A stretch of DNA of 64,000 nucleotides from an uncultured Chloroflexia bacterium (GTDB taxonomy: Bacteria > Chloroflexota > Limnocylindria > Limnocylindrales > CSP1-4), in the NCBI GenBank assembly GCA_963721015.1, contig CAVRHM010000002.1, positions 973,324 through 1,037,323 on the forward strand. Direction: 5' to 3'. This document shows positions 13,740 to 40,568 of the stretch, in pieces. The stretch's first letter is position 1; each line of letters opens with the position of its first letter. Made by a program: the position numbers and the translations under genes. Under the pieces are notes generated by a model, which was not told the DNA's origin, did no database searches, and saw only the letters and a program-made list of their open reading frames with translations.

Positions 13740-14273
13740 ATGCGCTCGTATCTCATCGTCGCCAACCAGACGCTGACGAGTCGATCCCTCGCCGAGGCGA
13801 TCACCGCCCGCCTGGCCGACGGTCCCATCCGGACCTACGTCGTCGTCCCCCTCGTCCCGGTCGGCGGCCGGCTGACCTGGGATGAGGTCGCGTCCAGGGA
13901 CGCTGCCACGGAACGGCTCGACGGCATCCTGGAGCGGCTGACCGCGCTGGGCGCCGAGGCCGCCGGCGAGGTCGGCGACCGCGATCCGGTGTCCGCGGTC
14001 CGGGACGCGATGCGCGGCCGTGAGGTCGACGAGATCATCATCTCGACCCTGCCCCGCGGCCTGTCCCGCTGGCTCGGCGAGGACGTTCCGAGCCGGCTGC
14101 AGCGAGAGCGTGACGGTCCCGGTGACCGTCGTGACCCAGCCGGACGAGGCCGCCGCCGGCTGAGGATGACCCGGCCGGGATCGGCTCAGGCGATGAGTCG
14201 ACCGGCGTCCCGGACCAGCTCCAGCCACGGCCGCTCGCGGCCGATCGTCGTCGCGGCCCCGTGGCCCGGGTAG
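13740..14273 (+). CDS. hypothetical protein (conserved N-terminal LIVANQT motif)
   Basis: Start chosen at MRSYLIVANQTL. C-terminal ~40 aa low-complexity and overlaps convergent MBL gene by ~88 nt. Confidence 0.4.
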   Translation: MRSYLIVANQTLTSRSLAEAITARLADGPIRTYVVVPLVPVGGRLTWDEVASRDAATERLDGILERLTALGAEAAGEVGDRDPVSAVRDAMRGREVDEIIISTLPRGLSRWLGEDVPSRLQRERDGPGDRRDPAGRGRRRLRMTRPGSAQAMSRPASRTSSSHGRSRPIVVAAPWPG

Positions 14274-14842
14274 ACGGCCACGCCGTCCTCGAGCTCGGAC
14301 AGGCGGGCCAGCGACGCGGCCATCGCGACCGGGTCGCCGCCGGGCAGGTCCACCCGGCCCCAGCCCGCCGCGAACAGCGTGTCGCCGCTGAACAGGCGAC
14401 CGCCGTCGACGTCATACAGGCAGACCGACCCCTCGGTATGGCCCGGCGTGTGCAGGACGCGCAGGCGGAACGACCCGAACCGGATCTCGCCGCCCTCGGC
14501 CAGGTCGACGGCCGGCACCGACGGCACGATCTCGAACGGCGCCCACAGCGGCTGGGGATCGACGAGTCGGGGGCGATCGTCCGGGTGGACCGCGATGTCG
14601 GCCCCGGTGTAGGCGGCCACGGCGGCGTTGTCGCCGATATGGTCCCAGTGGCCGTGACTCGACACGATGAGCTTCAGCGTCCAGTCACGAGCGGCGAGCT
14701 CATCGGCGATCCAGGCCAGGCAGGGTGTCGCCGTGTCGATGGCGATGGCCTCGCGGGTCCGCTCGTCGGCCAGGACGTGGACGTTCGTGGCGATCGGCCC
14801 GACGACGCGCTGCAGGTGCTCCACCGATCGATCGTCGCACAT
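14186..14842 (-). CDS. MBL-fold metallo-hydrolase (glyoxalase II-like)
   Basis: HxHxDH motif SSHGHWDHIGD, plus HTPGHTEGS, GDTLF and YPGHG. Start set at MCDDRSVEHL (ATG 14842); the track N-terminal extension to 15199 is Arg-rich junk. Confidence 0.75.
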   Translation of the reverse strand: MCDDRSVEHLQRVVGPIATNVHVLADERTREAIAIDTATPCLAWIADELAARDWTLKLIVSSHGHWDHIGDNAAVAAYTGADIAVHPDDRPRLVDPQPLWAPFEIVPSVPAVDLAEGGEIRFGSFRLRVLHTPGHTEGSVCLYDVDGGRLFSGDTLFAAGWGRVDLPGGDPVAMAASLARLSELEDGVAVYPGHGAATTIGRERPWLELVRDAGRLIA

Positions 14843-14942
14843 GGCTGGCCACTGGGCTGGACCCTGGTGCGACGATGCTCGACGCTTGCCTCGCCGGCGG
14901 ACCGGCGTAGGATTCGATCCGGAGGTGGCCGGATGACCGCGC

Positions 14943-15202
14943 AGCATTCCGTCAAGCTCATCCCATGGGACGATCGCGAGTTCGTCCAGGCCTATGAACG
15001 GGCCGCCGCCGATCTCGCGGCGGCGGGGATCAGCCTCCACCAGGCAGCCGCGCCGGTCGAGCTCCAGCGCCGGCTCCGGGCCGGCGGCTACCCGGAGGCG
15101 GTCTGCTGGTGCGAGCGGACACCGGAGACCATCCTGGCCGCCAAGGCCCGCTGCGTCGTCGCCCGGGACAGCGCAGCGGCGACGCCACTGACGCCGCACT
15201 AG
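14943..15202 (+). CDS. small hypothetical protein (86 aa)
   Basis: GGAGGTG 6 nt upstream of ATG 14943. Product MTAQHSVKLIPWDDREFVQAYERAAADLAAAGISL...CWCERTPETILAAKARCV. Embedded in a longer spurious track ORF. Confidence 0.45.
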
Positions 15203-15639: not shown

Positions 15640-16092
15640 TCAGCCGCCGGCGGGCGCCTCGAGCTTCTCCTTCATGCAGTCGAAGGTCTGGCCGATCATC
15701 TTGGTGGCCGTGCCCTCGATGAGCCGGGCGCCGACGCTGGCCAGCGTGCCCGAGATGTTGACGTCCGCCTTCCAGTCCATCGTCGTGCCGCCGTCCGGCC
15801 CGTCGGACAGATGCATCGAGGCGTCGGCGTCGACCGCACTGCCCGGGGCCTGCCCATGCGCCTTGATCCCCGCATGGTCCGGGGCGGCCAGCTCGGCGAA
15901 CTCCATGTTGACCACGAAGCGGGCGCTGATGAACCCGATGCCGACCTTGGCGGTGGCCTTGAAATGGGTGTCGTCGATGACCTCGATGGACTCGACGCCG
16001 GGGCCGCATTGACCGACCTGGTCGGGGTCGATGACGAAGGCCCAGACCTTGTCGCGGGGCGCGGCGATGTCGACGGAGCCCTCGAAGTGCAT
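15640..16092 (-). CDS. coxG: CoxG (SRPBCC) carbon monoxide dehydrogenase subunit G family protein
   Basis: 150 aa MHFEGSVDIAAPRDKVWAFVIDPDQV... typical CoxG/SRPBCC. Confidence 0.8.
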   Translation of the reverse strand: MHFEGSVDIAAPRDKVWAFVIDPDQVGQCGPGVESIEVIDDTHFKATAKVGIGFISARFVVNMEFAELAAPDHAGIKAHGQAPGSAVDADASMHLSDGPDGGTTMDWKADVNISGTLASVGARLIEGTATKMIGQTFDCMKEKLEAPAGG

Positions 16093-16120: not shown

Positions 16121-17248
16121 TCAGCCGGGCATCGAGCGGGTCGATGGGTCGGCCGAGAGATACGTTACCGGCTCCTTGATGAACCGGGTCCGGCAGCCGA
16201 TCGAGCAGAAGGCGTAGACGACCCCGTCGTGCTCGGCGAGATGCCGGGCATGGGCTCGATCGACGGTCATCCCGCAGACCGGGTCGTCCAGGACGATGTC
16301 GTCGACGACCGGCTCGAGGGTCACGCTGGCCGGCAGGGTCGCATGGTCCGTCGCCGGCCCCGGCCGGGCGATGAAGTCGGCCCGGCCACGCCGGACCTGG
16401 ACGAGCTCGGCCAGGATGGACAGGGCGATCTCGTCGGCCGTCTCGGCGCCCAGGTCGAGCCCGGCCGGGGCACGCAACGCGCCGATGCGATCCTGGTCGA
16501 TCGTCGTCTCCTCGCGCAGCCAGTCGCGGACGACGGTGGCCCGGGTCGGTGAGGCGACGAGTCCGACATACGACGCGTCGCGGGTCAGCGCGAGTCCGAC
16601 GGCTTCCTCGTCCCAGATGCCCTGGCTGGCGACCACGACGTACGGCGAGGCATCCGGGTCCAGGCCACGGATGTCCGCGGAGGCATGGACCCGCTCGGCA
16701 CCCGGGAAGGCATCGGCTTCGGCGATGGGATCGATGACCGTCACCCGCCAGCCCGCCGCCCCGCCCAGCCGCGCCAGCGCCCCGGCGATCGGCGTCGTCC
16801 CGACGACCCACAGGAGCGGTGCTGGCAGATGCGGTTCCACGTAGATCTCCAGTGTCCCGCCGGAATGGCAGGTCATGACCAGCTCGATGACGCCATCCGC
16901 CCGGCGACCCTCGCCGGGCCCGTCCCTCGACAGGCGGAGCAGCCGGGGCTGCCCGTCGCCGAGGGCCCGGAGCGCCTCGCGGACGACGACGGGCTGGGCG
17001 CAACTGCCGCCGACCCAGCCCTCGATCGTGCCGTCCGGGTGGATGATCCCGCTCGCCCCGGGTCGGGCCGAGGTCGGTTTGCGGACCGCGACCACCGTGG
17101 CGACCGCGAACGACCGCCCCGTCGACTCGAGCTCGACGGCCCGCGCGAACGTCGAGAACGTGCTCAGTTGAGGCCTTGCTCTCGAAGGATGGCCCAGACC
17201 TTCTGGGGTGTGATCGGGATATCGATGTTGCGGACACCGAGGTGCCAC
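16121..17248 (-). CDS. XdhC/CoxI family accessory protein fused to C-terminal TRASH/YHS zinc-ribbon domain
   Basis: XdhC_CoxI N- and Rossmann-like C-domain (VVGTTPIAGALARLGGAAGWRVTVIDP). Tail DPVCGMTVDRAHARHLAEHDGVVYAFCSIGCRTRF is a TRASH/YHS motif. Track start overlaps coxL by 85 nt, so true start probably downstream. Confidence 0.7.
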   Translation of the reverse strand: MAPRCPQHRYPDHTPEGLGHPSRARPQLSTFSTFARAVELESTGRSFAVATVVAVRKPTSARPGASGIIHPDGTIEGWVGGSCAQPVVVREALRALGDGQPRLLRLSRDGPGEGRRADGVIELVMTCHSGGTLEIYVEPHLPAPLLWVVGTTPIAGALARLGGAAGWRVTVIDPIAEADAFPGAERVHASADIRGLDPDASPYVVVASQGIWDEEAVGLALTRDASYVGLVASPTRATVVRDWLREETTIDQDRIGALRAPAGLDLGAETADEIALSILAELVQVRRGRADFIARPGPATDHATLPASVTLEPVVDDIVLDDPVCGMTVDRAHARHLAEHDGVVYAFCSIGCRTRFIKEPVTYLSADPSTRSMPG

Positions 17249-19557
17249 AGGGCGTCGACGACCGCGTTGGCGATGGCCGGCGGGGCGCCGACCGTCGCCG
17301 ACTCCCCCACCCCCTTGGCGCCGATCGGGTGATGCGGCGACGGGGTGACCGTCTTCTCGAGCTCCCAGGCCGGCGTCTCCACCGCGGTCGGGAGGAGGTA
17401 GTCCATGAACGTGCCGGCCATGTTGTTGCCGAGCTCGTCGTAGGTGATCTGTTCGTACAGCGCGGGCGCGAGGCCCATCGTGAGGCCGCCGTGGATCTGG
17501 CCGTCGACGATCATCGGGTTGATGATGTTGCCGCAGTCATCGACCGCCACGAAGCGGCGGATGTGGACCTGGCCGGTGCCCTTGTCGATGTCGACGACGC
17601 AGATGTACGAGCCGAACGGGAAGGTCAGGTTCGGCGGGTCGTAGTAGTCCACGGCCTCGAGGCCGGCCTCCATCCCGGCCGGATGGTTGGTGTACGCCGC
17701 GAAGGCGATCTCCTGGATGGTCTTGAACCGGTCCGGTGAACCCTTGACGCTGAACTTGCCGGGCTCCCACTCGAGGTCCTCCTCGGAGGCCTCCAGGAGG
17801 TGTGCGGCGAGCTTGCGGGCCTTGTCCCGGATCTTGCGGGCCGCGACGGCCGTGGCCGCACCCGCGACCGGCGTCGAACGCGACGCGTACGTGCCCAGGC
17901 CGTACGGCGCGGTGTCCGTGTCGCCTTCCTCGATCTTGATGTCGGCGACCGGGAAACCGAGCTCCTCGGCGATGATCTGGGCGAACGTCGTCTCGTGGCC
18001 CTGGCCCTGGGACTGGACCCCGAGCCGGGCGATGACCTTGCCGGTCGGATGGACCCGGATCTCGCACGAGTCGAACATCTTGATGCCCAGGATGTCGAAG
18101 TCGTGCGACGGCCCGGCGCCGACGATCTCGGTGAACGAGCTGATGCCGATGCCCATGAGCTCGCCCCGCTCACGCTTCTCCACCTGCTCCTTGCGCAGGT
18201 CGTCGTAACCGATCAGGTCGAGCGCCTTCTGGAGGGCGGCCGGATAGTTCCCGGAGTCGTAGTCCCAGCCGGTCGGCGTGTGATACGGGAACTGCTCGGG
18301 CTGGATGAAGTTCTCCATCCGGAGCTGGGCCGGGTCCTTGCCGATCTCATGGGCCAGGACGTCCACGATCCGTTCGACGGCGTGGACCGCCTCGGTGACG
18401 CGGAACGAGCAGCGATAGGCGACGCCGCCCGGCGGCTTGTTGGTGTAGACGCCATCGACCTCCACGAACGCGTTCTGGAAGTCGTACGAGCCGGTGATGA
18501 CGTTGAACAGGCCGGCCGGGTACTTCGACGGATCGGCCGCGGCATCGGTGTAGCCGTGGTCGGCGATGGTCTTGACCTTCATCGCCTGGATCTTGCCGGC
18601 CTTGTCCGCGCCGACCTCGATATCGATGTGGTAGTCACGGGCGAACGAGTCCGCCTGCAAATTCTCCGAGCGGTCCTCGATCCACTTGACCGGCTTGCCG
18701 ATGAGGAACGAGGCGGCGACGGCCAGGACGTAGCCCGGATAGACCGGGACCTTGCCACCGAACCCGCCGCCGATGTCGTGGGTCTTGACCCGGATGTTCT
18801 GCTCGGAGATGGGAAGCCCAGCCCCGGCCGCCACGAGCGCGACGACCGTCCTGATGGCGTGCGGCGCCTGGGTCGTCATGTGCATCGTCAGCTGGCTGCG
18901 GATCGGATCCCAGTCGGCGACGATGCCGCACGTCTCGATCGAGGCGACGTGGATCCGCGGGATGTAGATGTGCTCCTTGACCCGGACCTCGGACGCGGCG
19001 AGCGCGGCGTCGGCCTTGGCGGCGTCGCCGGACTCCCAGTGCCAGATGTGGTTGTTCTGCTTGTCCTGGGCTCGGTCCGGGCGGAGGACGAAGGCGTCGT
19101 CCTCGAGGGCCTTGTACGGGTCGGTGATGACCGGCAGTGGCTCGTAGTCGACGAGCACGGCAGCGACCCCGTCCGCGGCGGCATACCGGGACGTGGCGAT
19201 GACCGCGGCCACCTCCTGGCTCTGGTACATGACGGTGTCGGTCGGCAAGACCATCTGCATGTCGCCGGCGAGGGTCGGCATCCAGTGGAGCTTGTACGTC
19301 TCCAGGGCCTTGCCGTCGATGACGGCGAGGACACCCGGGACCTTCATCGCCTCGCTCGTGTCGATGCCCTTGATCGTCGCGTGGGCATATGGGCTGCGGA
19401 CGATGTCCAGCCACAGCTGCCCGGGCAGGTTGACATCCTCGATGTATTCGCCCGCGCCGCGGATGAAGCGCGGGTCTTCCTTGCGCTTGACGGAGTGGCC
19501 CATGCCCCCGATCTCGGGACTGGTGCGGAGCTCGCGGGGCGCTTCTTCGGTCGTCAT
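17164..19557 (-). CDS. coxL: aerobic CO dehydrogenase large (molybdopterin) subunit, form I
   Basis: 797 aa xanthine dehydrogenase-family MoCo subunit with form I active-site loop GVAYRCSFR. Confidence 0.9.
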   Translation of the reverse strand: MTTEEAPRELRTSPEIGGMGHSVKRKEDPRFIRGAGEYIEDVNLPGQLWLDIVRSPYAHATIKGIDTSEAMKVPGVLAVIDGKALETYKLHWMPTLAGDMQMVLPTDTVMYQSQEVAAVIATSRYAAADGVAAVLVDYEPLPVITDPYKALEDDAFVLRPDRAQDKQNNHIWHWESGDAAKADAALAASEVRVKEHIYIPRIHVASIETCGIVADWDPIRSQLTMHMTTQAPHAIRTVVALVAAGAGLPISEQNIRVKTHDIGGGFGGKVPVYPGYVLAVAASFLIGKPVKWIEDRSENLQADSFARDYHIDIEVGADKAGKIQAMKVKTIADHGYTDAAADPSKYPAGLFNVITGSYDFQNAFVEVDGVYTNKPPGGVAYRCSFRVTEAVHAVERIVDVLAHEIGKDPAQLRMENFIQPEQFPYHTPTGWDYDSGNYPAALQKALDLIGYDDLRKEQVEKRERGELMGIGISSFTEIVGAGPSHDFDILGIKMFDSCEIRVHPTGKVIARLGVQSQGQGHETTFAQIIAEELGFPVADIKIEEGDTDTAPYGLGTYASRSTPVAGAATAVAARKIRDKARKLAAHLLEASEEDLEWEPGKFSVKGSPDRFKTIQEIAFAAYTNHPAGMEAGLEAVDYYDPPNLTFPFGSYICVVDIDKGTGQVHIRRFVAVDDCGNIINPMIVDGQIHGGLTMGLAPALYEQITYDELGNNMAGTFMDYLLPTAVETPAWELEKTVTPSPHHPIGAKGVGESATVGAPPAIANAVVDALWHLGVRNIDIPITPQKVWAILREQGLN

Positions 19558-19575: not shown

Positions 19576-20124
19576 TCAGCCGGCCGCGGCCGGTTCGGCC
19601 GAGACTTCCTGGCCTTCGACCGTCTCGGCAGCCACGACCGGGGCGGACTCGCCCTCGCGCAGCGTGCCGGCGGCCTGCTGGATCGCCTTGACGATGTTCA
19701 CGTAGCCGGTGCAGCGGCACAGATTGCCGCTGATGCCCTCGCGGATCTCGGCCTCGGACGGGTCCGGGTTCTCCCCGAGCAGCCACGACGCCTGCATGAT
19801 CATCCCCGGGGTGCAGAACCCGCATTGCAGGCCATGCTGGTCCCAGAACGCCTGCTGGAGCGGGTGGAGGGTCGCGCCGTCGGCCATGCCCTCGATGGTC
19901 TTGACCGTCCGACCATCGGCCTGGACGGCGAGCATCGTGCAGCTCTTGGCGCTCTCACCGTCGACATGGACGGTGCACGCGCCGCAGTTACTCGTATCGC
20001 AGCCGACGTGCGTGCCGGTCAGGCCGAGCGTGTCGCGCAGGAAGTGGACGAGGAGGAGTCTCGGCTCGACGTCTGCCTCGTGCGCCTGGCCGTTCACCGT
20101 GGTGCTGATGTGTAGCGTCGTCAT
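19576..20124 (-). CDS. coxS: CO dehydrogenase small [2Fe-2S] subunit
   Basis: [11 protein letters not shown] and CGFCTPGM...CRCTGY ferredoxin motifs. Confidence 0.9.
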
Positions 20125-20231: not shown

Positions 20232-21107
20232 CTACGCGTAGGCGAGGGCGCGCGCCACGGCTGAGCGGAGCGACCGGACGGTCAGCTCGGCGGCCATCGC
20301 TCGCTTGTATTCGACGGGTCCGCGGATGTCACCGAAGGGTCTCGACTGCGCTCCGGCCGCCTCACCAGCCTGGCGGAACAACTCCTCCGACGGCCGCCGT
20401 CCGGCGAGGATCGCCTCGGCATCCGTGGCCGCGAACGGTGTCTCGGCGACGCCGGTCAGGCCGATCCCAGCGGAGGCGATCTGGCCCTCCACGCCGAGTC
20501 GCACGAAGACCGCCGACCCGCAGGTCGCGAAGTCGCCGACCTTGCGCTCCAGCTTGGTGTAGGCGCCGCCGGAGCCCCTGGGTCGACGGGTCATCCGGAT
20601 CTCGGTCAGGACTTCGGTCGGCTCGATGGCCGTCGTGAACGTATCGAGGAAGAAGTCGCGGGCCACGACCTCGCGCTTGCCGCCCTGGCTCCTGCACACG
20701 ATGGTCGCATCCACCGCGAGGAGGAACGCCGGCCAGTCGCTCGCCGGGTCGGCATGGGCGACGGACCCGCCGATCGTGCCCCAATTCCGGACCTGCGGGT
20801 CGCCGATGGTCGCCGCGACATCGACGATGCCCGGGTAGTGATCGACGATGATCGGGTGCTCGTGGATCTGGCGGTGGGTCGCCCGTGCGCCGATGCGCAG
20901 CTCGTCGTCCGTCTCGGTGATGCCGTCCAGGCCGGTGATGTCCTTGAGGTCCACCAGGAGGCCGGGTTGCGCAAGCCGGAGCTTGATCAACGGGATGAGG
21001 CTGTAGCCGCCGGACAGCAGCTTGGCCTCCCCCTCGCGGTCCTTGAGGATCCGCAACGCTTCGTCCAGGTCACCCGGACGGACATAGTCGAACTGACCGG
21101 GGATCAT
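20232..21107 (-). CDS. coxM: CO dehydrogenase medium FAD-binding subunit
   Basis: FAD_binding_5/CO_deh_flav_C-type: [11 protein letters not shown]...[11 protein letters not shown]...[12 protein letters not shown]. Confidence 0.9.
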
Positions 21108-21357: not shown

Positions 21358-22152
21358 TCAGGCGACGGCGATCGGTTCGCCCGTCTCGAGCATGGTCTTG
21401 AGCCCGGACACGATGTAGACGATGCCGCCGCTGAACTCGGTCTCGGTGCGCGAGCCGGGGATGAGCTTGGAGGTCACCGTCAGGCGGGTCGGGCCGCCGT
21501 CGTCGCCGGCCTCGATCGCCCAGGTCATCCGGACCGGCCCGTCCGCGGCCATGGCCGGATCCCAGCGCGGCGTGAAGTCCATGACCACCTTCCGGCCCGG
21601 CTCGACCTCGAGCACGACGCCATCGGCCGCCGGCGACCCGTCGGGATAGTCGTAGGCGATCGATGCGCCGACCTCCCAGGTCGAGCGCACGCGCGTCCCG
21701 TAGTAGTAGCGCGCGGTGTCCTCGCCGTCGGTGATGGCCTGCCAGACCCGGTCGGGCGTGGCCTTGATGTACACGGCATAGACGTGATCGATGGTGTCCA
21801 CCGGTGCCTCCAGCGTGCGTTTCATGAGGGACATCGCCCCGACGATGGGCTCGGCGAATTTCGAGATCCAACGGTCGTGGGCGAGGCGGATGGGCACCGG
21901 GTTGAGGTAGTGGCGCTTCTCGCGGCCGACCTTGCGGGTCGACACGAGATCGGCGGCCTCGAGCACCCCGAGGTGCTTCATGACCCCGAATCGGGTCATC
22001 GCGGGCAGCGCCTCGCACAGCTCTCCCAGCGTCTGGCCATCACGCTCGAAGAGCCGGTCGAGGAGGACTCGCCGACCGGGGTCGGCGAGCGCCCGGAAGA
22101 CCGGAGCCATGTCATCCGTCACGGGCCAGACTATATGTGACTCATTAGTCAC
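21358..22152 (-). CDS. ArsR/SmtB-family HTH regulator fused to SRPBCC (AHSA1/Aha1-like) domain
   Basis: N-terminal ArsR HTH (FRALADPGRRVLLDRL...LGELCEALPAMTRFGVMKHLGVLEAADLV). C-terminal START/AHSA1-like domain (VYAVYIKATPDRVWQAITD). Confidence 0.75.
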   Translation of the reverse strand: MTNESHIVWPVTDDMAPVFRALADPGRRVLLDRLFERDGQTLGELCEALPAMTRFGVMKHLGVLEAADLVSTRKVGREKRHYLNPVPIRLAHDRWISKFAEPIVGAMSLMKRTLEAPVDTIDHVYAVYIKATPDRVWQAITDGEDTARYYYGTRVRSTWEVGASIAYDYPDGSPAADGVVLEVEPGRKVVMDFTPRWDPAMAADGPVRMTWAIEAGDDGGPTRLTVTSKLIPGSRTETEFSGGIVYIVSGLKTMLETGEPIAVA

Positions 22153-24745: not shown

Positions 24746-25360
24746 CTAGCCGCGCCCCTCGGGCGGCACCCACTGGTTGGCCTTCTCGTTCCGAGCGGCC
24801 AGCGTCGCCGTCTCCTCGACCCGCTTGGCGCGAGTCTCGGGCCGCTTGGCCCCGCCGATCCAGGTGAGGATGGCCTTCCGTGCGCTCGGGCTGAACGCGT
24901 CCCAGTTGGGGCGAGCCGGCGGGTGCGCGTCCAGCGCCGCCACCAGGTCGTCCGGGACCACCAGCGCTTCGACGTCATCGAGCATCGTCCACGTCCCGAG
25001 GCGCTTGGCCTCCTCGACCGCCGCCAGCCCGGCCGGGAGCATGAGCCCGGCCGCGGTCAGGCGCTCGACGCGAGCCTTGTTCGTGCGTGCCCAGCCGCTC
25101 CGAGGACGGCGCGGGGCGAACCATTGGATCGTCCGGTCGTCATCCAGCCGGCGCTGGACGGCGTCGACCCAGCCGACGCACAGGGCCTCCTCGACCGCGT
25201 CCTCGTACGGAACGCTCGTCCGGCCGGTCGGCTTGCGCCAGGACGCGAGATAGACGCCGATCGATGTCGCATGGTTGGCGATGAGCCAGGCGCGCCAGCC
25301 GGCGCGGTCGAACGGGCCGACGAACGGCTTGCCATCCGGGGCCAGGCCATCGCCGGTCAT
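24746..25360 (-). CDS. YdeI/OmpD-associated family protein
   Basis: Motifs: FDRAGWRAWLIANHATSIGVYL, WFAPRRPRSGWARTNKARVERL, ARKAILTWIGGAKRPETRAKRVEE. Confidence 0.6.
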   Translation of the reverse strand: MTGDGLAPDGKPFVGPFDRAGWRAWLIANHATSIGVYLASWRKPTGRTSVPYEDAVEEALCVGWVDAVQRRLDDDRTIQWFAPRRPRSGWARTNKARVERLTAAGLMLPAGLAAVEEAKRLGTWTMLDDVEALVVPDDLVAALDAHPPARPNWDAFSPSARKAILTWIGGAKRPETRAKRVEETATLAARNEKANQWVPPEGRG

Positions 25361-26769
25361 CGGTCACCTTCCGGGCTCCAGGTCGCGATGCCGATGGTCA
25401 TCGGGTGCTGGCTGCGCAGCCCGGCCTGGCCCTGGGCATCGATGACGACGAGCGGCTCCAAGGCGGCGACGAAGCGGGCATCCGCCGCGCTGCCCGGGTC
25501 GACCCACAGCTGGCGGCGGAGGAAGTCCTCGAGCGCATCCCGCGAGTCGAACCGGCGCGGCTCACGCTCGACCCGCTCCACCACCGGGTCCCGTCCGCGG
25601 GCGCGCAGGAGCTCGATGAACTGCGGCAGGGCCGGCAGGCTGACCCGCGACTCGCCCCAGACCGGCGGCCAGCAGACGTCGGCGATCGACGACGGCTGGC
25701 GTTCCATGAGGACAGCCACGCACAGGCGCTCGCTCGCGGCCTCCATCGCGTCGACGAACGGACCGATGGCCGCGATGTCGTAGCTCACGTGGGCGATCAA
25801 CGAGACGTCCGCCGAGCCGGCCTCCGCGCCGACCACCGGCCACCGACCCTCCACCGTCGTGACGTTGTCGATGCCGTACTCGTCGGCGATCTCGCGGAGG
25901 CCGCCGAGCATCCCCGGCGATGGGTCGACGGCAACGACGCGCCCGCCGGACGGCGCCAACGCCCGGGCGATCGGCAGGGCGTAGCGACCGGCGCCTGCCC
26001 CGATGTCCAGCCACGTCTCGCCGGGCTGGACCAATGCCAGCAGGGCCTCGAGCGACGGATCGTCGGTCCGGGTCGGATCGGCCCGGAACAGCGAGGTGAC
26101 CGGGGCATAGAAGTCGGCAGCGTCGGGGACCTCCCGGAACCGGTCGACCTGGTCGTTGTTGGCATGGACCCGGTCCGCCCACGCGGACTCCAGGACGGCC
26201 ACGAGATCGGCCGGCGTGTCGACATCGGGGTTCCCGCCGTCGGCCGGCACGGCGATCTCCCGGACGAGCTCGGCGTGGGCGGCCACGAGCGGGCCGAGCC
26301 CGCGATCGCCGGTCGCCTCGGCCGCCAGCCCGAAGGCCGATCGATGGAGCAGGACCGGGTTCCGGCCCCCGTCGTGCGCGTAGACCGGCACGGAGACCGG
26401 GGTCTCCGGGCTGACCCCGGCGTCGTGCAGGGCCCGGAGCGCCGCGATCGGGACGCGCGGCTGGTCGCCGAGGACGAGGAGCGTGGCGTCCACGTCGGGA
26501 TCGAGCGCCTCGAGGCCGAGGCGGACGGAGCTCGATAGGCCCCGGTCCGGGTCGGGGTTGACGATGCGTCGCTCGTTGCGCCAGTCGATGGCGGTCTCCA
26601 CGGCCGACGCGTCCCCACCGAGGACGACGACGACATCGTCCGAACCGACCTCGGCCAGGCGATCGAGGACGTGCTGCAGGACCGGCCGCCCTTCGATGGT
26701 CGCCAGCAGCTTGCCGCCCCCGAACCGCGACCCGCGGCCGGCCGCGAGCACCACGGCCGCGACGCGCAT
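25357..26769 (-). CDS. MocA/MobA-like nucleotidyltransferase fused to class I SAM-dependent methyltransferase
   Basis: N-terminus MRVAAVVLAAGRGSRFGGGKLL...VVVVLG (MobA-like NTP transferase). C-terminus WLDIGAGAGRYALPIARALAPSGGRVVAVDPSPGML (MTase motif I). Stop overlaps YdeI start (ATGA). Confidence 0.7.
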   Translation of the reverse strand: MRVAAVVLAAGRGSRFGGGKLLATIEGRPVLQHVLDRLAEVGSDDVVVVLGGDASAVETAIDWRNERRIVNPDPDRGLSSSVRLGLEALDPDVDATLLVLGDQPRVPIAALRALHDAGVSPETPVSVPVYAHDGGRNPVLLHRSAFGLAAEATGDRGLGPLVAAHAELVREIAVPADGGNPDVDTPADLVAVLESAWADRVHANNDQVDRFREVPDAADFYAPVTSLFRADPTRTDDPSLEALLALVQPGETWLDIGAGAGRYALPIARALAPSGGRVVAVDPSPGMLGGLREIADEYGIDNVTTVEGRWPVVGAEAGSADVSLIAHVSYDIAAIGPFVDAMEAASERLCVAVLMERQPSSIADVCWPPVWGESRVSLPALPQFIELLRARGRDPVVERVEREPRRFDSRDALEDFLRRQLWVDPGSAADARFVAALEPLVVIDAQGQAGLRSQHPMTIGIATWSPEGDR

Positions 26770-28194: not shown

Positions 28195-29298
28195 CTAGGC
28201 GACCGCGCGCTCCTTCATCGGCACACCGGAGCCGCCGTAGCGTTCGGCGACGACCTCGGCGAGGATCGCCAGGGCGGTCTCCGGCGGCTGCCGGCCGCCC
28301 AGGTCCAGGCCGACCGGGCCGCGGAGCCGGGCCAGCTCGTCCGGCGTCACGCCGGCCTCGAGCAGGCGCTGCCGGCGGTCGCCCTGAGTCTTCTTCGAAC
28401 CCACGGCGCCGACATAGCGGCAACCGCGCCGCAGGGCCTCGACGATCGCGGGCTCGTCGAACTTCACGTCGTGGGTCAGGACGGCGACGGCGTCGTTCGG
28501 GCCCAGCCCGATCTCGTCCGCGACCTCGTCCGGCCAGCCGACGACGAGGCGATCGACGTCGGGGAACCGCTCCGGCGTCGCGAACGACGCCCGGCCATCG
28601 ATGACGACGGTCTCGAAGCCGAGCTCGCGCGCCAGGCGGACGAGGGACCGGGCGACTTCGACCGCGCCGACGACGACGAGCCGCGGCCGGACGGGAAAGG
28701 CCTCGATGAACAGCGACCGGCCACCCAGCTCGACCGTCCGCGACTGCCCGCGCTTGAGGGCCTCCCGGGCCTGCGTGACGAGCTGCGCGTCCAGCGTGCC
28801 GTCGCCGAGGGTGCCCTCCAGCGTCCCGTCGTCGCGGACGATCAGCTCGGGCTCCGGTGGCGCGCCGTCGCCCGGGGTGTGCTGGCCGAAGTCGGCCGGC
28901 GGCGAGTCAACGGGGAGTGGCGTCACGACGGCCACGCCCTGCCCGCCCGCCCCGACCGACGCCCGCGCGGCGTCGACGGCGACGACCGGCACGGCCGGCT
29001 CGACCAGCACGTCGATCGTGCCACCGCAGGCCAGGCCGACATCCCAGGCCTGCTCGTCGCTGATGCCGTAGCGGATGACCCGGGCGTGGCCGGTAGCCCG
29101 GGCGCGCTGGATCTCCTCGGCCGCCGCGCCCTCGACGCAGCCGCCGCTGACCGACCCGGCGATCCGGCCGTCGGCCGCATAGAGCAGGACCGCGCCCTCC
29201 GGCCGTGGGGCCGACCCGAACGTGCGGACCACGACGGCACGCCCGACCTCGGTCCCCTCCCCCTGCCAGGTGCTGAGCGTCTCGAGCAGCTCCTTCAT
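28195..29298 (-). CDS. XdhC/CoxI(CoxF) family molybdenum hydroxylase accessory protein
   Basis: Motifs: GSVSGGCVEGA and RLVVVGAVEVARSLVRLARELGFETVVIDGR. Confidence 0.8.
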   Translation of the reverse strand: MKELLETLSTWQGEGTEVGRAVVVRTFGSAPRPEGAVLLYAADGRIAGSVSGGCVEGAAAEEIQRARATGHARVIRYGISDEQAWDVGLACGGTIDVLVEPAVPVVAVDAARASVGAGGQGVAVVTPLPVDSPPADFGQHTPGDGAPPEPELIVRDDGTLEGTLGDGTLDAQLVTQAREALKRGQSRTVELGGRSLFIEAFPVRPRLVVVGAVEVARSLVRLARELGFETVVIDGRASFATPERFPDVDRLVVGWPDEVADEIGLGPNDAVAVLTHDVKFDEPAIVEALRRGCRYVGAVGSKKTQGDRRQRLLEAGVTPDELARLRGPVGLDLGGRQPPETALAILAEVVAERYGGSGVPMKERAVA

Positions 29299-29310: not shown

Positions 29311-30714
29311 TCAGCGCAGGGGCTGCGCGGCGTCGGGCGTGTCGGACGGGCCGGCCACGGCGGCTGGCAGCGGCACGTTGGCGAGGTCCACCGAAGGCGG
29401 TGCCGGGATCGCGGCATGGGCCGCGGCCTCCGAGCCGCGCCGGATGTCCGCCGAGCGGACGCCACCCAGGATCTCGCCGAGCCGCTCCAACGACGCGACG
29501 GTCCCGGCCGGCAGGAAATCGTCGATGTACGGGAACGCGGCGCGCATCCCACCGGCCAGCGGCTGGTAGCCGGGCGTGCCCGCCAGCGGATTGAGCCAGA
29601 CGAGCCGGTGGCAGTTCCGGCGCAGGCGTGCCGTCTCGGCCGCCACGAGCGCCGGGTCCCCGCGGTCCCAGCCATCGCTGACGACGATGACGACGCCACT
29701 CGTGCGCAGCGTCCGCCGGGCCCAGGTCTGGTTGAAGACGCGGAAGCTCTCGCCGATCCGCGTCCCGCCGGCCCAGTCGTTGACCGTGTCGGCCACGCGG
29801 GCCAGGGCCCGGTCGCGATCGCGGTCCTTGAGCAGTCGGGTCACCCGGGTCAGGCGCGTCCCGAACACGAACGACTCGACGCGGACCTCGCTGGCCGAGG
29901 TCAAGGCCTGGACGAACCGGAGCAGCAGCCGCGAGTGGCGCTCCATCGAGCCCGAGATATCGCAGATGACGACGAGCGAGCGCGGCTCCTTGATGGGGCG
30001 CCGCCAGACCCACGACATGAGCTGACCGCCGGTCCCGAGATTGCGCCGGAACATCGCCCGGGGCGCCAGGCGGCGGCCGTGCGAATGGAGCTCGTAGCGA
30101 CGCGTCCGGCGTTGCTCGAGGCGCGGGATGAGCTCGTCGACGAGGCGCTCGGCGTCGCGCAGCTCGGCCGGGGTCATCCGGTCGAACTCCCGGTGGCGGA
30201 GCAGCTCACCGCGCGAGTAGGCGTCGGGCGCGACGATGACGCCCTCGATCTCCTCGTCGTCGACCGCGTCATCGTCACCGGCGGACGGCATCGGCACGCC
30301 CTGCTGGTCCGAGTCCTGCTCGGCGCGCTGGTCGCCGGGCATCGGCTGGGTCTGGCCGGCGGCCTCCTCGCCCTCCATCCCTTGCTCGGCCGGGCGCTGG
30401 AGCGGCGGGGCCCCGAAGTCGCCCTGGCGGCGGGTCCGCTGCCGCCACCACCGGTCGAACACCGCGTCGTAGGTCGGCCGGTCGTCGCGGCGCCGGACGA
30501 AGATGGCCTCGCCGGCGGCCCGGACCTGCTCGCGCTCGCCCATGTCCACGAGGGGCAAGGCCCGGGCATAGTCGACCGCGGCGCCCAGGTCGACGTGGAG
30601 GCCGGCGGCCCGCAGCGCTCGCCCGAACCCGACCGCCTCGTGGAGCAGCCGCCGCCCGTCGACCTCGGGGCCCCACGGGGCCCGAACGACAGCGGGATCG
30701 TCAGCGAGCGGCAT
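29311..30714 (-). CDS. coxE: CoxE-type VWA domain protein
   Basis: VWA_CoxE: LVVICDISGSMERHSRLLL...GGTRIGESF...VVIVSDGWDRGD. Confidence 0.8.
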   Translation of the reverse strand: MPLADDPAVVRAPWGPEVDGRRLLHEAVGFGRALRAAGLHVDLGAAVDYARALPLVDMGEREQVRAAGEAIFVRRRDDRPTYDAVFDRWWRQRTRRQGDFGAPPLQRPAEQGMEGEEAAGQTQPMPGDQRAEQDSDQQGVPMPSAGDDDAVDDEEIEGVIVAPDAYSRGELLRHREFDRMTPAELRDAERLVDELIPRLEQRRTRRYELHSHGRRLAPRAMFRRNLGTGGQLMSWVWRRPIKEPRSLVVICDISGSMERHSRLLLRFVQALTSASEVRVESFVFGTRLTRVTRLLKDRDRDRALARVADTVNDWAGGTRIGESFRVFNQTWARRTLRTSGVVIVVSDGWDRGDPALVAAETARLRRNCHRLVWLNPLAGTPGYQPLAGGMRAAFPYIDDFLPAGTVASLERLGEILGGVRSADIRRGSEAAAHAAIPAPPSVDLANVPLPAAVAGPSDTPDAAQPLR

Positions 30715-33000: not shown

Positions 33001-33945
33001 TCAGCCTCGCGCCGCGACCTCGGTGAGGATCCGCTTGGTCTGCTCGCCACGGAGCTGGCGGATGTCCTCCTCGTACTTGAGCACGACGCCCAGGGTCTCG
33101 TCGACGAGCTCCGGCGTCAGCTCCCGCGCCCCGAGGGACATGAGCGCGGCGGCCCAGTCGAGCGTCTCGGCGATGCCGGGCACCTTGGTCAGGTCCGCCT
33201 CGCGCAGGCGATGGACGAAGCCGACGACCTCGCGGGCGAGCTGCTCTGGCGCCGCCGGGACGCGTGCGAGCACGATCTCGTATTCCTTCTGGGCCGTCGG
33301 GTAGTCGATCCAGTGGTACAGGCAGCGTCGCTTGAGCGCGTCGTGGACCTCACGCGTGCGGTTCGAGGTCAGGATGACTCGCGGCGGCAACTCGGCCTTG
33401 ATCGTGCCGATCTCGGGGACCGTGACCTGGAAGTCGGACAGGATCTCGAGGAGGTAGGCCTCGAACTCCTCGTCGGCGCGGTCGATCTCATCGATCAGCA
33501 GGACCGGCGCGACCCCGTCGTGGACCTCCAGGGCCTGGAGGAGCGGGCGGCGGATGAGGAAGTCACTGCCGAAGATGTCGTGAGCGCTCGCATGCTGGGC
33601 CTCGCCGCGCGCCTCGAGGAGCCGGATCTCGAGCATCTGGCGCGGGTAGTTCCATTCGTAGACGGCCGTGTTGACGTCCAGGCCCTCGTAGCACTGGAGG
33701 CGGATGAGCCGCGCGCCCAGACTCTCGGCGAGGACCTTGGCCAGCTCCGTCTTGCCGACGCCGGCCTCGCCCTCCAGGAGCAGCGGCCGGCCGAGCTCAA
33801 GGGCCAGGAAGACGGCCGTCGACAGCGAGCGATCCATGATGTAGTCGCGGCCGTGGAAGTCCTCGGTCAGGGCTTCGATGGAACGGGTGCCCGCCGGACG
33901 GTCGTCACGGGCCGGGGCGGTCGGGCGGTCTTGGCGAACGGTCAT
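33001..33945 (-). CDS. coxD: CoxD-type MoxR-family AAA+ ATPase
   Basis: Walker A GEAGVGKTELAKVLA, Walker B VLLIDEIDRADEE, sensor ILTSNRTRE. Start at MTVRQDR. Confidence 0.8.
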   Translation of the reverse strand: MTVRQDRPTAPARDDRPAGTRSIEALTEDFHGRDYIMDRSLSTAVFLALELGRPLLLEGEAGVGKTELAKVLAESLGARLIRLQCYEGLDVNTAVYEWNYPRQMLEIRLLEARGEAQHASAHDIFGSDFLIRRPLLQALEVHDGVAPVLLIDEIDRADEEFEAYLLEILSDFQVTVPEIGTIKAELPPRVILTSNRTREVHDALKRRCLYHWIDYPTAQKEYEIVLARVPAAPEQLAREVVGFVHRLREADLTKVPGIAETLDWAAALMSLGARELTPELVDETLGVVLKYEEDIRQLRGEQTKRILTEVAARG

Positions 33946-34098
33946 GGGCGGAGGGTACACGGACCGACGAACCGACGACGACCGACCCACCGGGCGCGTC
34001 GCGGGCGCGCGACACACGCGACACGCGACACCGCGCGCGTACCATCCGGGCCATCAGGCCGCCGGGACCGCCTCGCCATGCGCGATGGAGGCACGTCC

Positions 34099-35547: not shown

Positions 35548-36591
35548 TCAACCATCCGGGGCGTCCAGGTCCCGGGCGTATGGCGGGAACCGAAAGCGCT
35601 GCGAGCGGGTGAGGATCCCGCCGTGGCCGAGCTTGGCGACGGTCTTCTCCGAGGCCGGCTCCCCGGAGAGGAGTCGCGGCAGGAGCAGGTCGGCCGCCGT
35701 TGCCTTGGAGTACGCGCCACAGGTCGGCAGGCCCAGGATGGCGGTATGGCCGACTCGGGCGAGCCAGAGCATCGACCCAGGGTGCGAGGGCACGCCGCGC
35801 CGCACGACGCGTCCGCCGAGTGACTCGATGGCGACGTAGAACGGATCCTGTGGATCGGTCGACGCGGAGCCGGCGGTCAGGACGAGATCGCACAGGTCGG
35901 CGCCGCGGACGAACCGGCCGACCGCGGCCTCCACGGCGTCGACGTCGTCGTCGACGTAGACGATGTCCAGGATCGTCGACCCGAGACCCTCGACCTTGGC
36001 CCGGACGCTCGTCTCGAACCGCTCACGGGCTGTCGCCCGGACGGTCTCCTTGACGACGACCCCCACCCGGCGCGCGGTGAACGGCGCGACCCACACGATG
36101 GGCTGCGAGCCGAATGCCGCGATCCGGGCGCCAGCCTCGACGATCCCGGCATCGACGATATGCGGCGCGACCTTGACCGAGGCCACGAGATCGCCCGCCT
36201 CCACGATCTGGCCATCGAACACGGTGAACAGCTCCAGCGGGTCGAGTCGGTTGAGCCGCTCCAGGTCGGCCACGTTGACGTTGACGACGCCGGCCGCCGC
36301 CGCGACCAGGTCCAACCGGCTCTGGTTGGGGCCGCGGACCTCCAGTCCCGACCCGGCCACGGCCTGGGCGAGCCGGACCGCGGCGTCATCCTCGTGGAGC
36401 TCGCCCGGTTCGGCGATGAGGACGGTGACGGCCGGGCCCGGATCGGCCGTGCCGAGCGCGGTCAGATCGTCGGCCGAGAGCCGCCGACCCTTGCTCCAGC
36501 GGTGCCCGCGGACGTTCAGGTCGCGAGCCAGGACCGCCCCGACGAGGCGCGCCGGTGCGCGCCGACCCGGGATCACCCGATCGACGCGCAC
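35548..36591 (-). CDS. molybdopterin-binding (MoCF-biosynthesis/CinA-like domain) protein
   Basis: VLTAGSASTDPQDPF...GLPTCGAYSKATAADLLLPRLLSGEP resembles MogA/MoeA-type MPT-binding fold. Confidence 0.5.
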   Translation of the reverse strand: MRVDRVIPGRRAPARLVGAVLARDLNVRGHRWSKGRRLSADDLTALGTADPGPAVTVLIAEPGELHEDDAAVRLAQAVAGSGLEVRGPNQSRLDLVAAAAGVVNVNVADLERLNRLDPLELFTVFDGQIVEAGDLVASVKVAPHIVDAGIVEAGARIAAFGSQPIVWVAPFTARRVGVVVKETVRATARERFETSVRAKVEGLGSTILDIVYVDDDVDAVEAAVGRFVRGADLCDLVLTAGSASTDPQDPFYVAIESLGGRVVRRGVPSHPGSMLWLARVGHTAILGLPTCGAYSKATAADLLLPRLLSGEPASEKTVAKLGHGGILTRSQRFRFPPYARDLDAPDG

Positions 36592-36623: not shown

Positions 36624-37466
36624 CTAGCGGCCGAGCGCCGCCTCGATGGCGCGGCGGGTATAGACGACGGCCATCCGCGCGCGGTAGTCGCGACTGGCAT
36701 GGATGTCGCCGTTGACGGTCTGGCCGTCGGCGGCATGCTCGGCCGCGGCAGCCACCGCCGACACCGAGCCGTCACTGCCCACGAGTGCGGACTCGACGGC
36801 CTTGGCCCGATACGGCGTTTCGCCGACACCGGTCAAGGCGACCCGGGCGTGCGACACCGAGCCGCCGGACATCGCGACCACGGCCGCGACCCCGACGATG
36901 GCGTAGCCCGACGCCGGATTGCCCAGCTTCTGGTAGGAGCCGCCGGCCCCGTCCGGGAGCGGGCCGCGGACCAGCTTGATGAGGAGCTCGTCCGGTTCGA
37001 TGGCCGTCTGGAACGGGCCCTGGAAGAAGCCGTCCAGGGGCACGGTCCGTTCGCCCCGCTTGGAGCGGAGGACGGCCTTGTAGTCGAGGGCCAGGCCCAG
37101 GGCCGGGATGTCCGAGGCCGGATCGGCGTGACTGACCGAACCGCCGACCGTCCCACGATTGCGCACCTGGATGTCGCCGATCTCATTGACGCACTCTCGG
37201 GAGATGGCAAGCCCGGTCGACGCCAGGACGTCGGCGTAGGTCGCCAGCGCGCCGGTCTCGAATCCGCCGTCCGCGGTGGGCCCGAGCGCCCGGAGATCGT
37301 CCAGCCCGCCGATATCGATGAGCGTGGTCGGGTTCGCGAGCCGGAGCTTCATGAGCGGCAGGAGGCTCATCCCGCCGGCCAGGACCTTGGCGTCGCCGCC
37401 GGCGATGGCCGTCAGCGCGTCGTCGACCGACGACGCCCGCTGGTACGTGAACGGTGCCGGGATCAC
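36624..37466 (-). CDS. form II CODH-like medium FAD-binding subunit
   Basis: [18 protein letters not shown]...LAGGMSLLPLMKLRL...GTVGGSVSHADP. GTG start overlaps upstream TGA (GTGA). Track ORF upstream extension is junk. Confidence 0.8.
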   Translation of the reverse strand: MIPAPFTYQRASSVDDALTAIAGGDAKVLAGGMSLLPLMKLRLANPTTLIDIGGLDDLRALGPTADGGFETGALATYADVLASTGLAISRECVNEIGDIQVRNRGTVGGSVSHADPASDIPALGLALDYKAVLRSKRGERTVPLDGFFQGPFQTAIEPDELLIKLVRGPLPDGAGGSYQKLGNPASGYAIVGVAAVVAMSGGSVSHARVALTGVGETPYRAKAVESALVGSDGSVSAVAAAAEHAADGQTVNGDIHASRDYRARMAVVYTRRAIEAALGR

Positions 37467-39886
37467 GCCTGGCCTCCCTTCGCCGCTTCGATCGCGGACC
37501 AGACCTTCTGGGATGTGTAGGGCATGTCGAGATGGCGGATGCCGAGCGGGCTGAGCGCGTCGATGACCGCGTTCGCGACCGCCGCCGTCGAGGCGATCGC
37601 CCCGGCCTCGCCGACGCCCTTGACCCCGATCGGGTTGACCGGCGAGGGGGTCACGGTCTCGTCCAGCTCGAACGTCGGCAGGCGCGATGCCTTGGGCAGC
37701 GCGTAATCCATCATCGAGCCCGACAGGAGCTGCCCGTCGTCGCTGTAGATGGCCTCCTCCCAAAGGGCCTGGCCGACACCCTGGGCGATGCCGCCGTGGA
37801 GCTGGCCGTCGACGATGAGGGGGTTGATCTTCTTGCCGACGTCGTCGACGGCGACATAGCGGACGAGGTCGACCTTGCCCGTCTCCTCGTCGATCTCGAC
37901 GACCGCGATGTGCGTCCCGAACGGCCACGTGCAGTTCGGGGTGTCGTAGTAGGCCGTCTCGTCGAGGTACGGCTCCATGCCTTCGGGCGTATCGAACGCC
38001 AGGTCGAGCGCGAAGGCGATCTCCTGGAGCGTCTTCTTGCGGTCCGGGCTGCCTTTCACCCGGTACTCGGCGCCCTCGATCTCGATATCGTCGGGCGACG
38101 CCTCGAGCATGTGCGCCGCGTAGCGCCGGGCCTTGGCCTTGACCTTGTCCGTCGCCTTGATGGCCGCGGTCATGCCCACCGAGCTGGTGCGCGACCCGTA
38201 CGAGCCGTAGCCGAACGGGGTGCCCTGCGTGTCCGAGTGCTGGATGATGACGTCCTCCATGGGGACGCCGAGCTCGGTCGCCACGACCTGGGCGTAGGTC
38301 GTCTCGTGGCCCTGGCCCTGGGGCTGGGTGCCCATCGTGACCACGACCTTGCCGGTCAGGTGGATCTTGATGTTGGACGACTCCCACATGGCCGCGCCCC
38401 AGCCCTCGCCGACCGCGCCGATCCACTTGGACGGCGCGACGCCGCAGACCTCGATGTAGGTCGACAGGCCGAGGCCCAGGAGCTTGCCGCGGCCTTTGGC
38501 CTCGGCCTTCTTGGCGGCCAGGTCGCCGTACCCGACGGCGGCCAGGGCCTTGTCCATGGCCGGCTCGTAGTCGCCGGAATCGATGTAGATCTTGGCGCCG
38601 CCGCTGGCCGTACCCAGGCCTGACGGGTTCTCGTAGGGGAACTGGTCCGGGGCGATGAAGTTCTTGCGGCGCAGCTCCGCCCGGTCCATCCCGATCTCGG
38701 CGGCGAACAGGTCCATGGCCCGCTCGATGACGTACGTCGCCTCGGGCCGGCCGGCGCCGCGGTACGCATCCACGAACGTCGTGTTCGTGTACACGCCGGT
38801 GACCTCGGCATAGACGTTCGGGATCTTGTAGCAACCGCTCAGGACGCGCGCGTACAGGGTCGTCGGGATACCTGGCCCGATCGTCGACAGGCGACCGCCC
38901 AGGTTGGCCAGGGTCTTGACCCGCAGGCCGGTGACCTCACCGTCACGCGTGCCCGCGATCTCCAGGTAGGTGATGTGATCGCGGCCGTGGATCGTGCTCT
39001 GGTAGCTCTCGCGCCGACCCTCGACCCACTTGACCGGCCGTCCGCCGAGCGCCTTGCTGGCGAACAGGACGAGGGCGTAGTCCGGGTAGCAGAAGATCTT
39101 CGTGCCGAAGGCGCCACCGACATCCGGGCTGATGCACCGGATCTTGTGCTCCGGGATGCCCATCACGAACGCGGCGAGCAGGAGCCGCTGGATGTGCGGC
39201 GTCTGGCTGGACATCCAGATCGTGTACTCGTCGGTGCCCGGGTTGTACCAGCCGATGTTCCCGCGGGCCTCCATCGGGTTGGGGATGAGCCGGTGGTTGA
39301 CGATCCGCTGGCGGACCACGACCTCGGCCCCGTCGACGGCGGCGTCCGTGCCGGCTTTGTCGCCGACGGTCCACTCGAAGACGACGTTGTTCGGTGCGTT
39401 CTCGTGGAGCTGCGGCGCGCCGTCGGCCATCGCCTTCTCGGCATCGACGACCGCGGGCAGTGGCTCCCAGTCGACCTGGATGGCGTCCAGCGCGTCATAG
39501 GCCTGCGCTTCGGTCTCGGCGACCACCGCCGCGACGCCCTCGCCGGTCCACTTGACGCTGTCCGTGGCCAGCGTCCGGGGCGTGCTCACGTTGTTCTGGA
39601 TGCCCGCGCTGCCGCCCGCCGGCCAGGCCATCGGCATCGGGTTGTACGGGATGTCCGCGCCGACGAACACGCCGACGACGCCGGGCATCGTCCTGGCCTT
39701 GCTGGTGTCGATGGACCGGATGTTGGCGTGGGCGTACGGGCTGCGCAGGATGGCCATATGAGCCATCGACTGGAGCTTGATGTCGTCGAGATAGCGGCCC
39801 TGGCCGGTGATGAAGCGCGGATCCTCGGTGCGCTTGAGGGCCTGGCCGAAGGGGGCGGACGCCGGGGCGTCGAGGACGTCAGTCAT
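37463..39886 (-). CDS. form II CODH-like large molybdopterin subunit (AYRGAGR type)
   Basis: Xanthine dehydrogenase-family MoCo subunit with loop [15 protein letters not shown]. Start MTDVLDAP (39886); track ATG at 39934 is the alternative. Confidence 0.85.
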
Positions 39887-39902
39887 GGTCGGGTCCCCTT
39901 CC

Positions 39903-40397
<495 letters not shown>

Positions 40398-40568
40398 CAG
40401 CCGGACCTCCTTCGAACACTGCTGAGGCACGGCCGGGACCCCGGTCGCGCGGATGACGGATCGCCACGTCCCTGGAGCTGCTCGGGGCCTCTCTCGACGG
40501 CCGGTCCGCGAGTCGGCGGGTCGGTCGGGTGGGAGGTCGAACGATGGTGGCACCGACGGGTAGCGGAA

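Follow-up and report, generated by a model that had tools for sequence, protein, structure and literature searches.

The window, a stretch of 64,000 nucleotides, comes from an uncultured Chloroflexia bacterium (GenBank assembly GCA_963721015.1, contig CAVRHM010000002.1, positions 973,324 to 1,037,323). Directly downstream of its gene coxL, which encodes the large subunit of a form I aerobic carbon monoxide dehydrogenase (CODH), lies a gene in which a molybdenum-cofactor chaperone of the XdhC type is fused to a C-terminal YHS domain. The original prediction had described this gene as XdhC_CoxI domains joined to a metal-binding tail next to a form I coxL, and both the fusion and the position were confirmed. 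We suggest, with the chances about even, that the tail captures copper and passes it through a flexible linker to the core of the chaperone or into the active-site funnel of CoxL, leading to the [CuSMoO2] center; this proposal draws on sequence comparison and on published work. The gene and its parts are the following.

16121..17248, minus strand: gene of a CoxF-type XdhC chaperone with a C-terminal YHS domain (the longest open reading frame, from GTG 17248)
16934..17122, minus strand: XdhC_CoxI domain (PF02625), residues 43-105, 64.1 bits against a gathering cutoff of 24.3
16403..16813, minus strand: XdhC_C Rossmann-like domain (PF13478), residues 146-282, 98.3 bits against a cutoff of 29.7, with a predicted local distance difference test score (pLDDT) >90
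16298..16363, minus strand: predicted disordered linker of about 22 residues, residues 296-317 of 375, pLDDT <50
16151..16285, minus strand: YHS domain (PF04945), residues 322-366, 33.7 bits against a gathering cutoff of 30.3, E=3.6e-8

Counted from the GTG, the open reading frame has 375 residues and matches three Pfam domains, XdhC_CoxI, XdhC_C and YHS, the last of them over positions 3-46 of the 47 positions of the PF04945 profile. The tail that had been quoted in the original prediction, DPVCGMTVDRAHARHLAEHDGVVYAFCSIGCRTRF, was found verbatim in the translation. Its putative ligands are D322, C325, C348 and C352, and this makes the pattern D-x2-C-x22-C-x3-C, with one aspartate and three cysteines, instead of the CxxC...C...CxxC spacing that had been read into it. 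A canonical TRASH domain has four cysteines (C-x2-C...C-x3-C with a spacer of 19-22 residues), whereas the tail in the window begins with the aspartate. Between the two profiles that had been proposed for the tail, YHS was recovered as given above and TRASH was not, for the archaeal TRASH profile PF08394 gave no match to the window protein at E<=0.01. A canonical four-cysteine TRASH domain was ruled out by the first ligand and by this missing match. Judged from profile and ligand pattern, the tail is a YHS variant of the TRASH fold, in which an aspartate stands in place of the first TRASH cysteine.

The tail is widely conserved. The combination of PF02625, PF13478 and PF04945 was present in all of the 120 best database homologues (82-100% identity), which are Limnocylindria or other Chloroflexota wherever the source gives a name. 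In an exhaustive search of representatives of 50%-identity clusters, 108 of the best 150 matches aligned through the tail in one stretch, and three further representatives that were read individually (P0149, P0157 and P0178) have the tail behind longer linkers. We also aligned 32 diverse relatives with 31-90% identity, each of which matched PF04945 individually (best E=1.5e-17). In this alignment the tail residues P, C, F, C, C and F were invariant, including all three cysteines; the linker was unconserved in sequence and varied in length from about 20 to more than 100 residues. PF08394 was matched by two of these relatives, and the related PF24273 (TRASH_HVO_1752_C) by 14.

At the level of genomes, we used 80 loci, a species-level set retrieved by similarity to the window protein. 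An in-frame motif [D/N/C]-x2-C-x22-C-x3-C was present in 73 of them, and the spacer had exactly 22 residues in all but one (72/73). The tail-bearing loci came from Chloroflexota, Acidobacteriota, Bacteroidota, Actinomycetota, Myxococcota, Gemmatimonadota, Methylomirabilota, Rokubacteria, Dormibacterota and Gammaproteobacteria. The seven loci without the motif, one of them cut by a contig end, were all labelled Pseudomonadota; their labels were Comamonadaceae, Nisaea, Labrenzia, an uncultured Enterobacterales metagenome-assembled genome and an unclassified Pseudomonadota metagenome-assembled genome. A search of plasmids added the tail in Thermomicrobium, in Paraburkholderia (Betaproteobacteria) and in the haloarchaeon Natronorubrum bangense, and in a degenerate form in Deinococcus. 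As judged by this motif, the surveys show that the tail-bearing form predominates among the sampled CoxF relatives outside the alpha- and betaproteobacterial branch. Some variants of the architecture were seen in metagenomic proteins: P0136, P0153, P0171 and P0183 (533-565 residues) are triple fusions of a MobA/MocA-like nucleotidyltransferase, XdhC and YHS, and P0148 (377 residues) has two tandem YHS domains.

The original prediction had considered that the tail might be unconserved and a run-on from a missed stop. Because the motif is so strongly conserved across relatives and genomic loci (120/120 close homologues, 32/32 diverse relatives and 73/80 loci), a run-on or a chance pattern of cysteines is ruled out. 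An artefact of annotation or sequencing is next to impossible for a tail that is in frame, scores above the Pfam gathering threshold and keeps its invariant residues at 31-90% identity in different phyla, an archaeon among them. All that can be said for an artefact is that the open reading frame has an uncertain 5' end.

This uncertainty, together with an overlap of 85 nt with coxL, had been pointed out before, and it persisted. There are only two canonical in-frame starts, GTG 17248 and a GTG at codon 52. The overlap hinges on the first of them, which also gives a 28-residue extension without conservation in the relatives. The second is where the public gene call P0001 (324 residues) begins (17095-17248 region, minus strand), and this start would cut off a conserved N-terminal helix, FARAVELE..GRSFAVAT. 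In close relatives the protein starts with an ATG (MTSRSTF, MTGRSVF) immediately past the coxL stop, and the codon of the window that is aligned to this ATG is a CTG at 17167, overlapping the TGA of coxL. It appears from this alignment that the true start is either the upstream GTG 17248 or the non-canonical CTG 17167.

The label XdhC/CoxI in the original prediction was right in the family and wrong in the type. We took the reference CoxF and CoxI from the pHCG3 record of Oligotropha carboxidovorans and compared them with the window protein by BLASTP. The identity to CoxF was 40.5% across the whole XdhC core (158 bits, E=3.5e-50), versus 24.8% to CoxI (59 bits); the second XdhC protein of the window (28195..29298) reached just 85 bits to Oligotropha CoxF. 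Because the identity to CoxF is 40.5% against about 25% to CoxI, we consider the fused protein, on this comparison, to be an orthologue of CoxF within the XdhC family of molybdenum-cofactor chaperones, and its identity as CoxI was ruled out. Members of the XdhC superfamily are chaperones that bind the molybdenum cofactor (Moco) (PMC2997495). From its family membership, we infer that the window protein binds Moco or its molybdopterin cytosine dinucleotide (MCD) form, and that it either protects the cofactor on behalf of the apo-enzyme or carries out its insertion (PMC2997495). The cysteine of the GGSC motif in the XdhC_CoxI domain (C55 in the numbering of a 347-residue form) was invariant in the 32-member alignment.

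The CoxF of O. carboxidovorans (Afipia carboxidovorans) OM5 is the closest characterised system. It has the same two XdhC Pfam domains and an aligned conserved cysteine, and it likewise belongs to a form I cluster with coxM, coxS, coxL, coxD, coxE and coxG. However, it has only 280 residues and stops right past the Rossmann domain, without linker or YHS domain, whereas the window protein has both. The comparison with Oligotropha that had been proposed thus found the tail absent there and present in relatives elsewhere. The gene order is also different: coxF of the window is located between coxL and coxG, with coxD and coxE some 12-17 kb away, and in Oligotropha coxD and coxE are directly upstream. 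More distant members of the superfamily, such as Oligotropha CoxI, the XdhC-like protein of Mycobacterium smegmatis (2WE7/2WE8) and XdhC of Rhodobacter capsulatus, share XdhC_CoxI and XdhC_C with the window protein, but they are long, have a duplicated N-domain and no YHS domain; their equivalent in the window is the gene at 28195..29298. In the Protein Data Bank (PDB), the nearest solved XdhC structures were 2WE7/2WE8 and 3ON5, and there was no XdhC-YHS fusion among the solved structures.

The genes around the fused gene form an operon in the order coxM-S-L-F-G, all on the minus strand.

20232..21107, minus strand: coxM, FAD-binding medium subunit (Pfam)
19576..20124, minus strand: coxS, [2Fe-2S] small subunit (Pfam)
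17164..19557, minus strand: coxL, large subunit of form I aerobic CO dehydrogenase (TIGR02416 and VAYRCSFR loop)
15640..16092, minus strand: coxG, SRPBCC/COXG family (PF06240, 136.6 bits), 28 nt downstream of the CoxF-YHS gene

The TIGR02416 score of coxL was 1184.7 bits against a cutoff of 991.15, and its active-site loop is VAYRCSFR. By this score and loop, the neighbouring CoxL is a genuine form I enzyme, the type with the [CuSMoO2] center. In 51 of the 73 tail-bearing loci, a coxL within 7.5 kb, always on the same strand, had the form I loop, which reads AYACSFR in actinobacteria and AYRCSFR otherwise. When only the loci with adequate flanking sequence were counted, form I coxL was present in 51/51, and the number of loci with a non-form I enzyme alone was zero. 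The other 22 were mostly short or cut contigs with little upstream sequence, and 16 of them still had coxD, coxE or coxG. The tail-bearing gene was directly past coxL, as in the window, in 30 loci, past coxE, the classical position of CoxF, in 21, and past a MocA-like gene in eight. In the plasmid collection there were 127 matching records, and in six of them the alignment took in 80% or more of the query and so reached through the tail; the remaining 121 included alphaproteobacterial XdhC genes and genes annotated as yqeB. Four of the tail-aligned records were inspected, and in each of them the gene was in a cluster with a large subunit annotated as aerobic CO dehydrogenase. One of these plasmid proteins, with an equivalent in Paraburkholderia (WP_035477365.1), is WP_143714800.1 of the megaplasmid of Thermomicrobium roseum DSM 5159, which has the same order of XdhC core, linker and YHS (DPVCGM...FCCPAC), is 42% identical over the full length and is also directly past a form I coxL; it belongs to another lineage (Thermomicrobiota according to the record), has no coxG annotated downstream and is annotated only as 'XdhC family protein'. 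The restriction of the sampled tail-bearing loci to form I clusters fits a role specific to the copper enzyme.

The same restriction is relevant to another explanation, in which the tail cysteines bind no metal and relay a persulfide for the bridging sulfide of the Mo-S(-Cu) site. XdhC proteins work with cysteine desulfurases to sulfurate Moco (PMC2997495), the bridging sulfide is required by form I CODH (PMC4240915), and three cysteines of the tail are invariant. However, sulfuration is needed by all sulfurated molybdenum hydroxylases, yet the tail was seen solely in form I cox clusters. In addition, the D/C-x2-C...C-x3-C pattern and the YHS/TRASH matches indicate a metal-binding knuckle and not a carrier like rhodanese or TusA. 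We therefore regard a persulfide relay as very improbable.

The structure predictions agreed with a tethered domain. An AlphaFold2 model of the 347-residue form, built on the 32-sequence alignment, had a pLDDT mostly >90 in the XdhC core, <50 in residues 268-289 (residues 296-317 of the 375-residue frame) and about 83-91 in a small beta/alpha tail; when the tail was modelled alone, its pLDDT was 81.5. In a comparison of the tail profile with the PDB, the YHS region of the phenol hydroxylase PHN was the best match (E=4.7e-7), and the ribosomal protein eL24 was weaker. Foldseek of the 63-residue tail model against the PDB returned the YHS regions of PHN, T4MO and ToMO as well as eL24, all non-significant with E >=0.6, which is no surprise for so short a query. 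These top matches agree with Pfam, and the assignment of a metal gains nothing from them. TRASH, eL24 and the YHS region of PHN belong to the same family of small treble-clef-like metal-binding folds as the tail. In the monooxygenases and the ribosome, however, the domain is an integral structural element, whereas the YHS domain of the window is tethered.

If the tail delivers copper, we propose the following route. The tethered YHS domain would capture a copper ion, supplied either by the pool in the cytoplasm or by a copper chaperone. The flexible linker would then allow it to hand the ion to the cysteine of the CoxF core (MTCHSGG) or directly into the active-site funnel of CoxL, and this transfer would complete [MoO2-SH] to [CuSMoO2], with CoxD (AAA+) and CoxE (VWA) encoded farther off in the window. 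The invariant cysteine of MTCHSGG in the window protein aligns with MCPSHGTM, the putative copper site of Oligotropha CoxF, and Oligotropha CoxF has been proposed to escort copper by this motif, M107CPSHGTM (PMC4240915). In coxF and coxE mutants of O. carboxidovorans, CODH was complete in molybdenum and sulfane sulfur and had no copper (PMC4240915). That a copper-deficient, inactive CODH results when coxF is lost is known for the tail-less Oligotropha protein only (PMC4240915). We would go further, though with slightly less than even confidence, and say that the YHS tail is a dedicated Cu(I) donor and that CoxF usually carries it outside the alpha- and betaproteobacterial branch, in at least one archaeon too, with the tail-less protein of Oligotropha as the exception.

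The class IIIc adenylyl cyclase of Mycobacterium phlei has an identical ligand pattern in its YHS domain. This domain belongs to PF04945 too, is C-terminal as well, and its ligands D178, C181, C204 and C208 have the same D-x2-C-x22-C-x3-C spacing; the cyclase is activated specifically by copper through this domain (PMC4626032). There the domain is a regulator behind a linker of 8-11 residues, whereas in the window it belongs to a cofactor chaperone, and the predicted disordered linker has at least 22 residues. It is conceivable that the tail of CoxF is also a copper sensor that gates the chaperone activity, for example the protection or release of Moco or sulfur, and not a donor. The cyclase domain, the sole YHS of this pattern that has been studied biochemically, is a copper-responsive C-terminal regulatory module (PMC4626032), and the order of core, linker and C-terminal YHS is analogous here. 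But linkers of such variable length, from some 20 to over 100 residues, seem ill-suited to allosteric coupling, and XdhC proteins are not known to be regulated by metals. A sensor is in our opinion quite improbable.

Several points weigh against copper delivery, and some of them are in favor of a structural role for the tail. The metal binding of CoxF or CoxF-YHS is putative. YHS domains are not copper sites in every case, and the YHS region of PHN, the best PDB match, binds a structural zinc. The YHS domain of T4MO was metal-free in crystals (PMC4626032). In the orthologue on plasmid p380k of Deinococcus sp. AJ005 (L083:7986-9047), the tail is YHS-like (SPVDGE...YYFTCANC) and two of the three canonical cysteines are replaced; because this protein keeps the domain with two cysteines gone, the YHS fold can persist without the full ligand set. 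The CoxF of Oligotropha, the sole genetically characterised case, is tail-less, and hence the tail is not essential to the function of CoxF; this tail-less protein is nevertheless needed for copper insertion (PMC4240915). Tail-less clusters do not make up for the missing tail with a gene nearby, since no separate YHS open reading frame was present within 10 kb in the seven tail-less cox loci or in pHCG3, and a compensating YHS gene was ruled out over this distance. Finally, the related loci were picked by similarity to the window protein, which makes the test of form I exclusivity non-exhaustive.

The main alternative to copper delivery is that the tail is a structural zinc ribbon, which docks CoxF on CoxL, CoxE or another partner and carries no copper. 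The cases of Deinococcus and Oligotropha just mentioned are in keeping with docking (PMC4240915 for the latter). The best PDB matches in sequence and fold, namely eL24 and YHS regions that lie inside the alpha subunits of phenol, toluene and methane monooxygenase hydroxylases, are cases in which the domain is structural. On the other hand, the long disordered linker is better suited to a swinging carrier than to a fixed docking element, and the sampled tail-bearing genes are located in clusters of a copper-containing form I enzyme. The strict conservation of the aspartate and three cysteines, with the x22 spacer in 72/73 loci, argues for a metal site but leaves the identity of the metal unspecified, and the YHS domain of the cyclase, whose ligands are spaced identically, shows a copper-specific response (PMC4626032). 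We consider zinc docking rather unlikely on balance, and copper delivery is the reading that we prefer.

The other accessory genes of the cox system are farther upstream in the window.

25357..26769, minus strand: MobA/MocA-like nucleotidyltransferase (N-terminal, about 165 residues) with a methyltransferase domain
28195..29298, minus strand: second XdhC paralogue, long, with a duplicated N-domain and without YHS, CoxI-like, adjoining coxE
29311..30714, minus strand: coxE-like VWA protein (PF05762, 201 bits)
33001..34017, minus strand: coxD-like MoxR/AAA+ ATPase, 50-60% identical to the genes that related loci have in the position of CoxD

The gene at 25357..26769 is probably involved in the synthesis of the MCD cofactor. 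It joins a nucleotidyltransferase and a SAM-dependent methyltransferase in one open reading frame of 470 residues, and the latter is an odd partner for an enzyme of MCD synthesis. A second molybdenum hydroxylase is encoded at 37463-40553 on the minus strand, with a large subunit (37463..39934) that has a form II-type AYRGAGR loop and a small subunit (39903..40553); it is upstream of a gene with a MoCF_biosynth domain (35548..36591) and of the coxD, coxE and second XdhC genes. These accessory genes may work for either of the two enzymes, form I or form II-like, or for both. A second, tail-less XdhC of the CoxI type was also found in the form I clusters of the haloarchaeon (L084:12431-13588), Paraburkholderia (L085:10411-11430) and Oligotropha (L081:12475-13482). 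Judging from these clusters, form I systems may as a rule have two XdhC paralogues each.

Some further genes surround the operon. Immediately upstream of coxM, at 21358-22152 on the minus strand, lies a gene for a protein with an ArsR-like HTH_20 domain and an AHSA1/SRPBCC domain, which could regulate the cox operon. At 14186-15199, also on the minus strand, there is a gene with a metallo-beta-lactamase fold, which resembles glyoxalase II or persulfide dioxygenase by weak matches and probably starts at an internal ATG (MCDDRS...). The gene is syntenic downstream of coxG in most of the Limnocylindria relatives (L001, L003, L004, L006-L010 and L030). Between the coxD-like and coxE-like genes, a gene of 767 residues at 30747-33050 on the minus strand resembles glycogen-debranching or other glycoside hydrolase (GH) enzymes (GDE_N_bis, MGH1-like), and it overlaps the open reading frame of the coxD-like ATPase by about 50 nt.

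The operon, the family and each of the two domains were known before, and the fusion is no new kind of system. Thousands of database entries carry the three domains under automatic Pfam labels, and the RefSeq name is 'XdhC family protein'. In the open-access literature, we found no report linking YHS or TRASH with XdhC, CoxF, CoxI or aerobic CODH. The finding of CoxF-YHS overturns nothing in the existing picture. Aerobic CO dehydrogenase underlies the consumption of atmospheric CO by soil and aquatic bacteria. The sole model of copper insertion into its Mo-S-Cu site comes from Oligotropha and is based on sequence motifs of the tail-less CoxF, with a speculative phytase activity and Cu2+-phytate (PMC4240915). 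The conserved, tethered YHS domain with its aspartate and three cysteines is a concrete and easily testable candidate for a copper-handling element. If it does deliver copper, the insertion step would be reduced to a domain of about 50 residues that can be assayed, mutated and transplanted, and the tail could guide the heterologous production of active Mo-Cu CODH.

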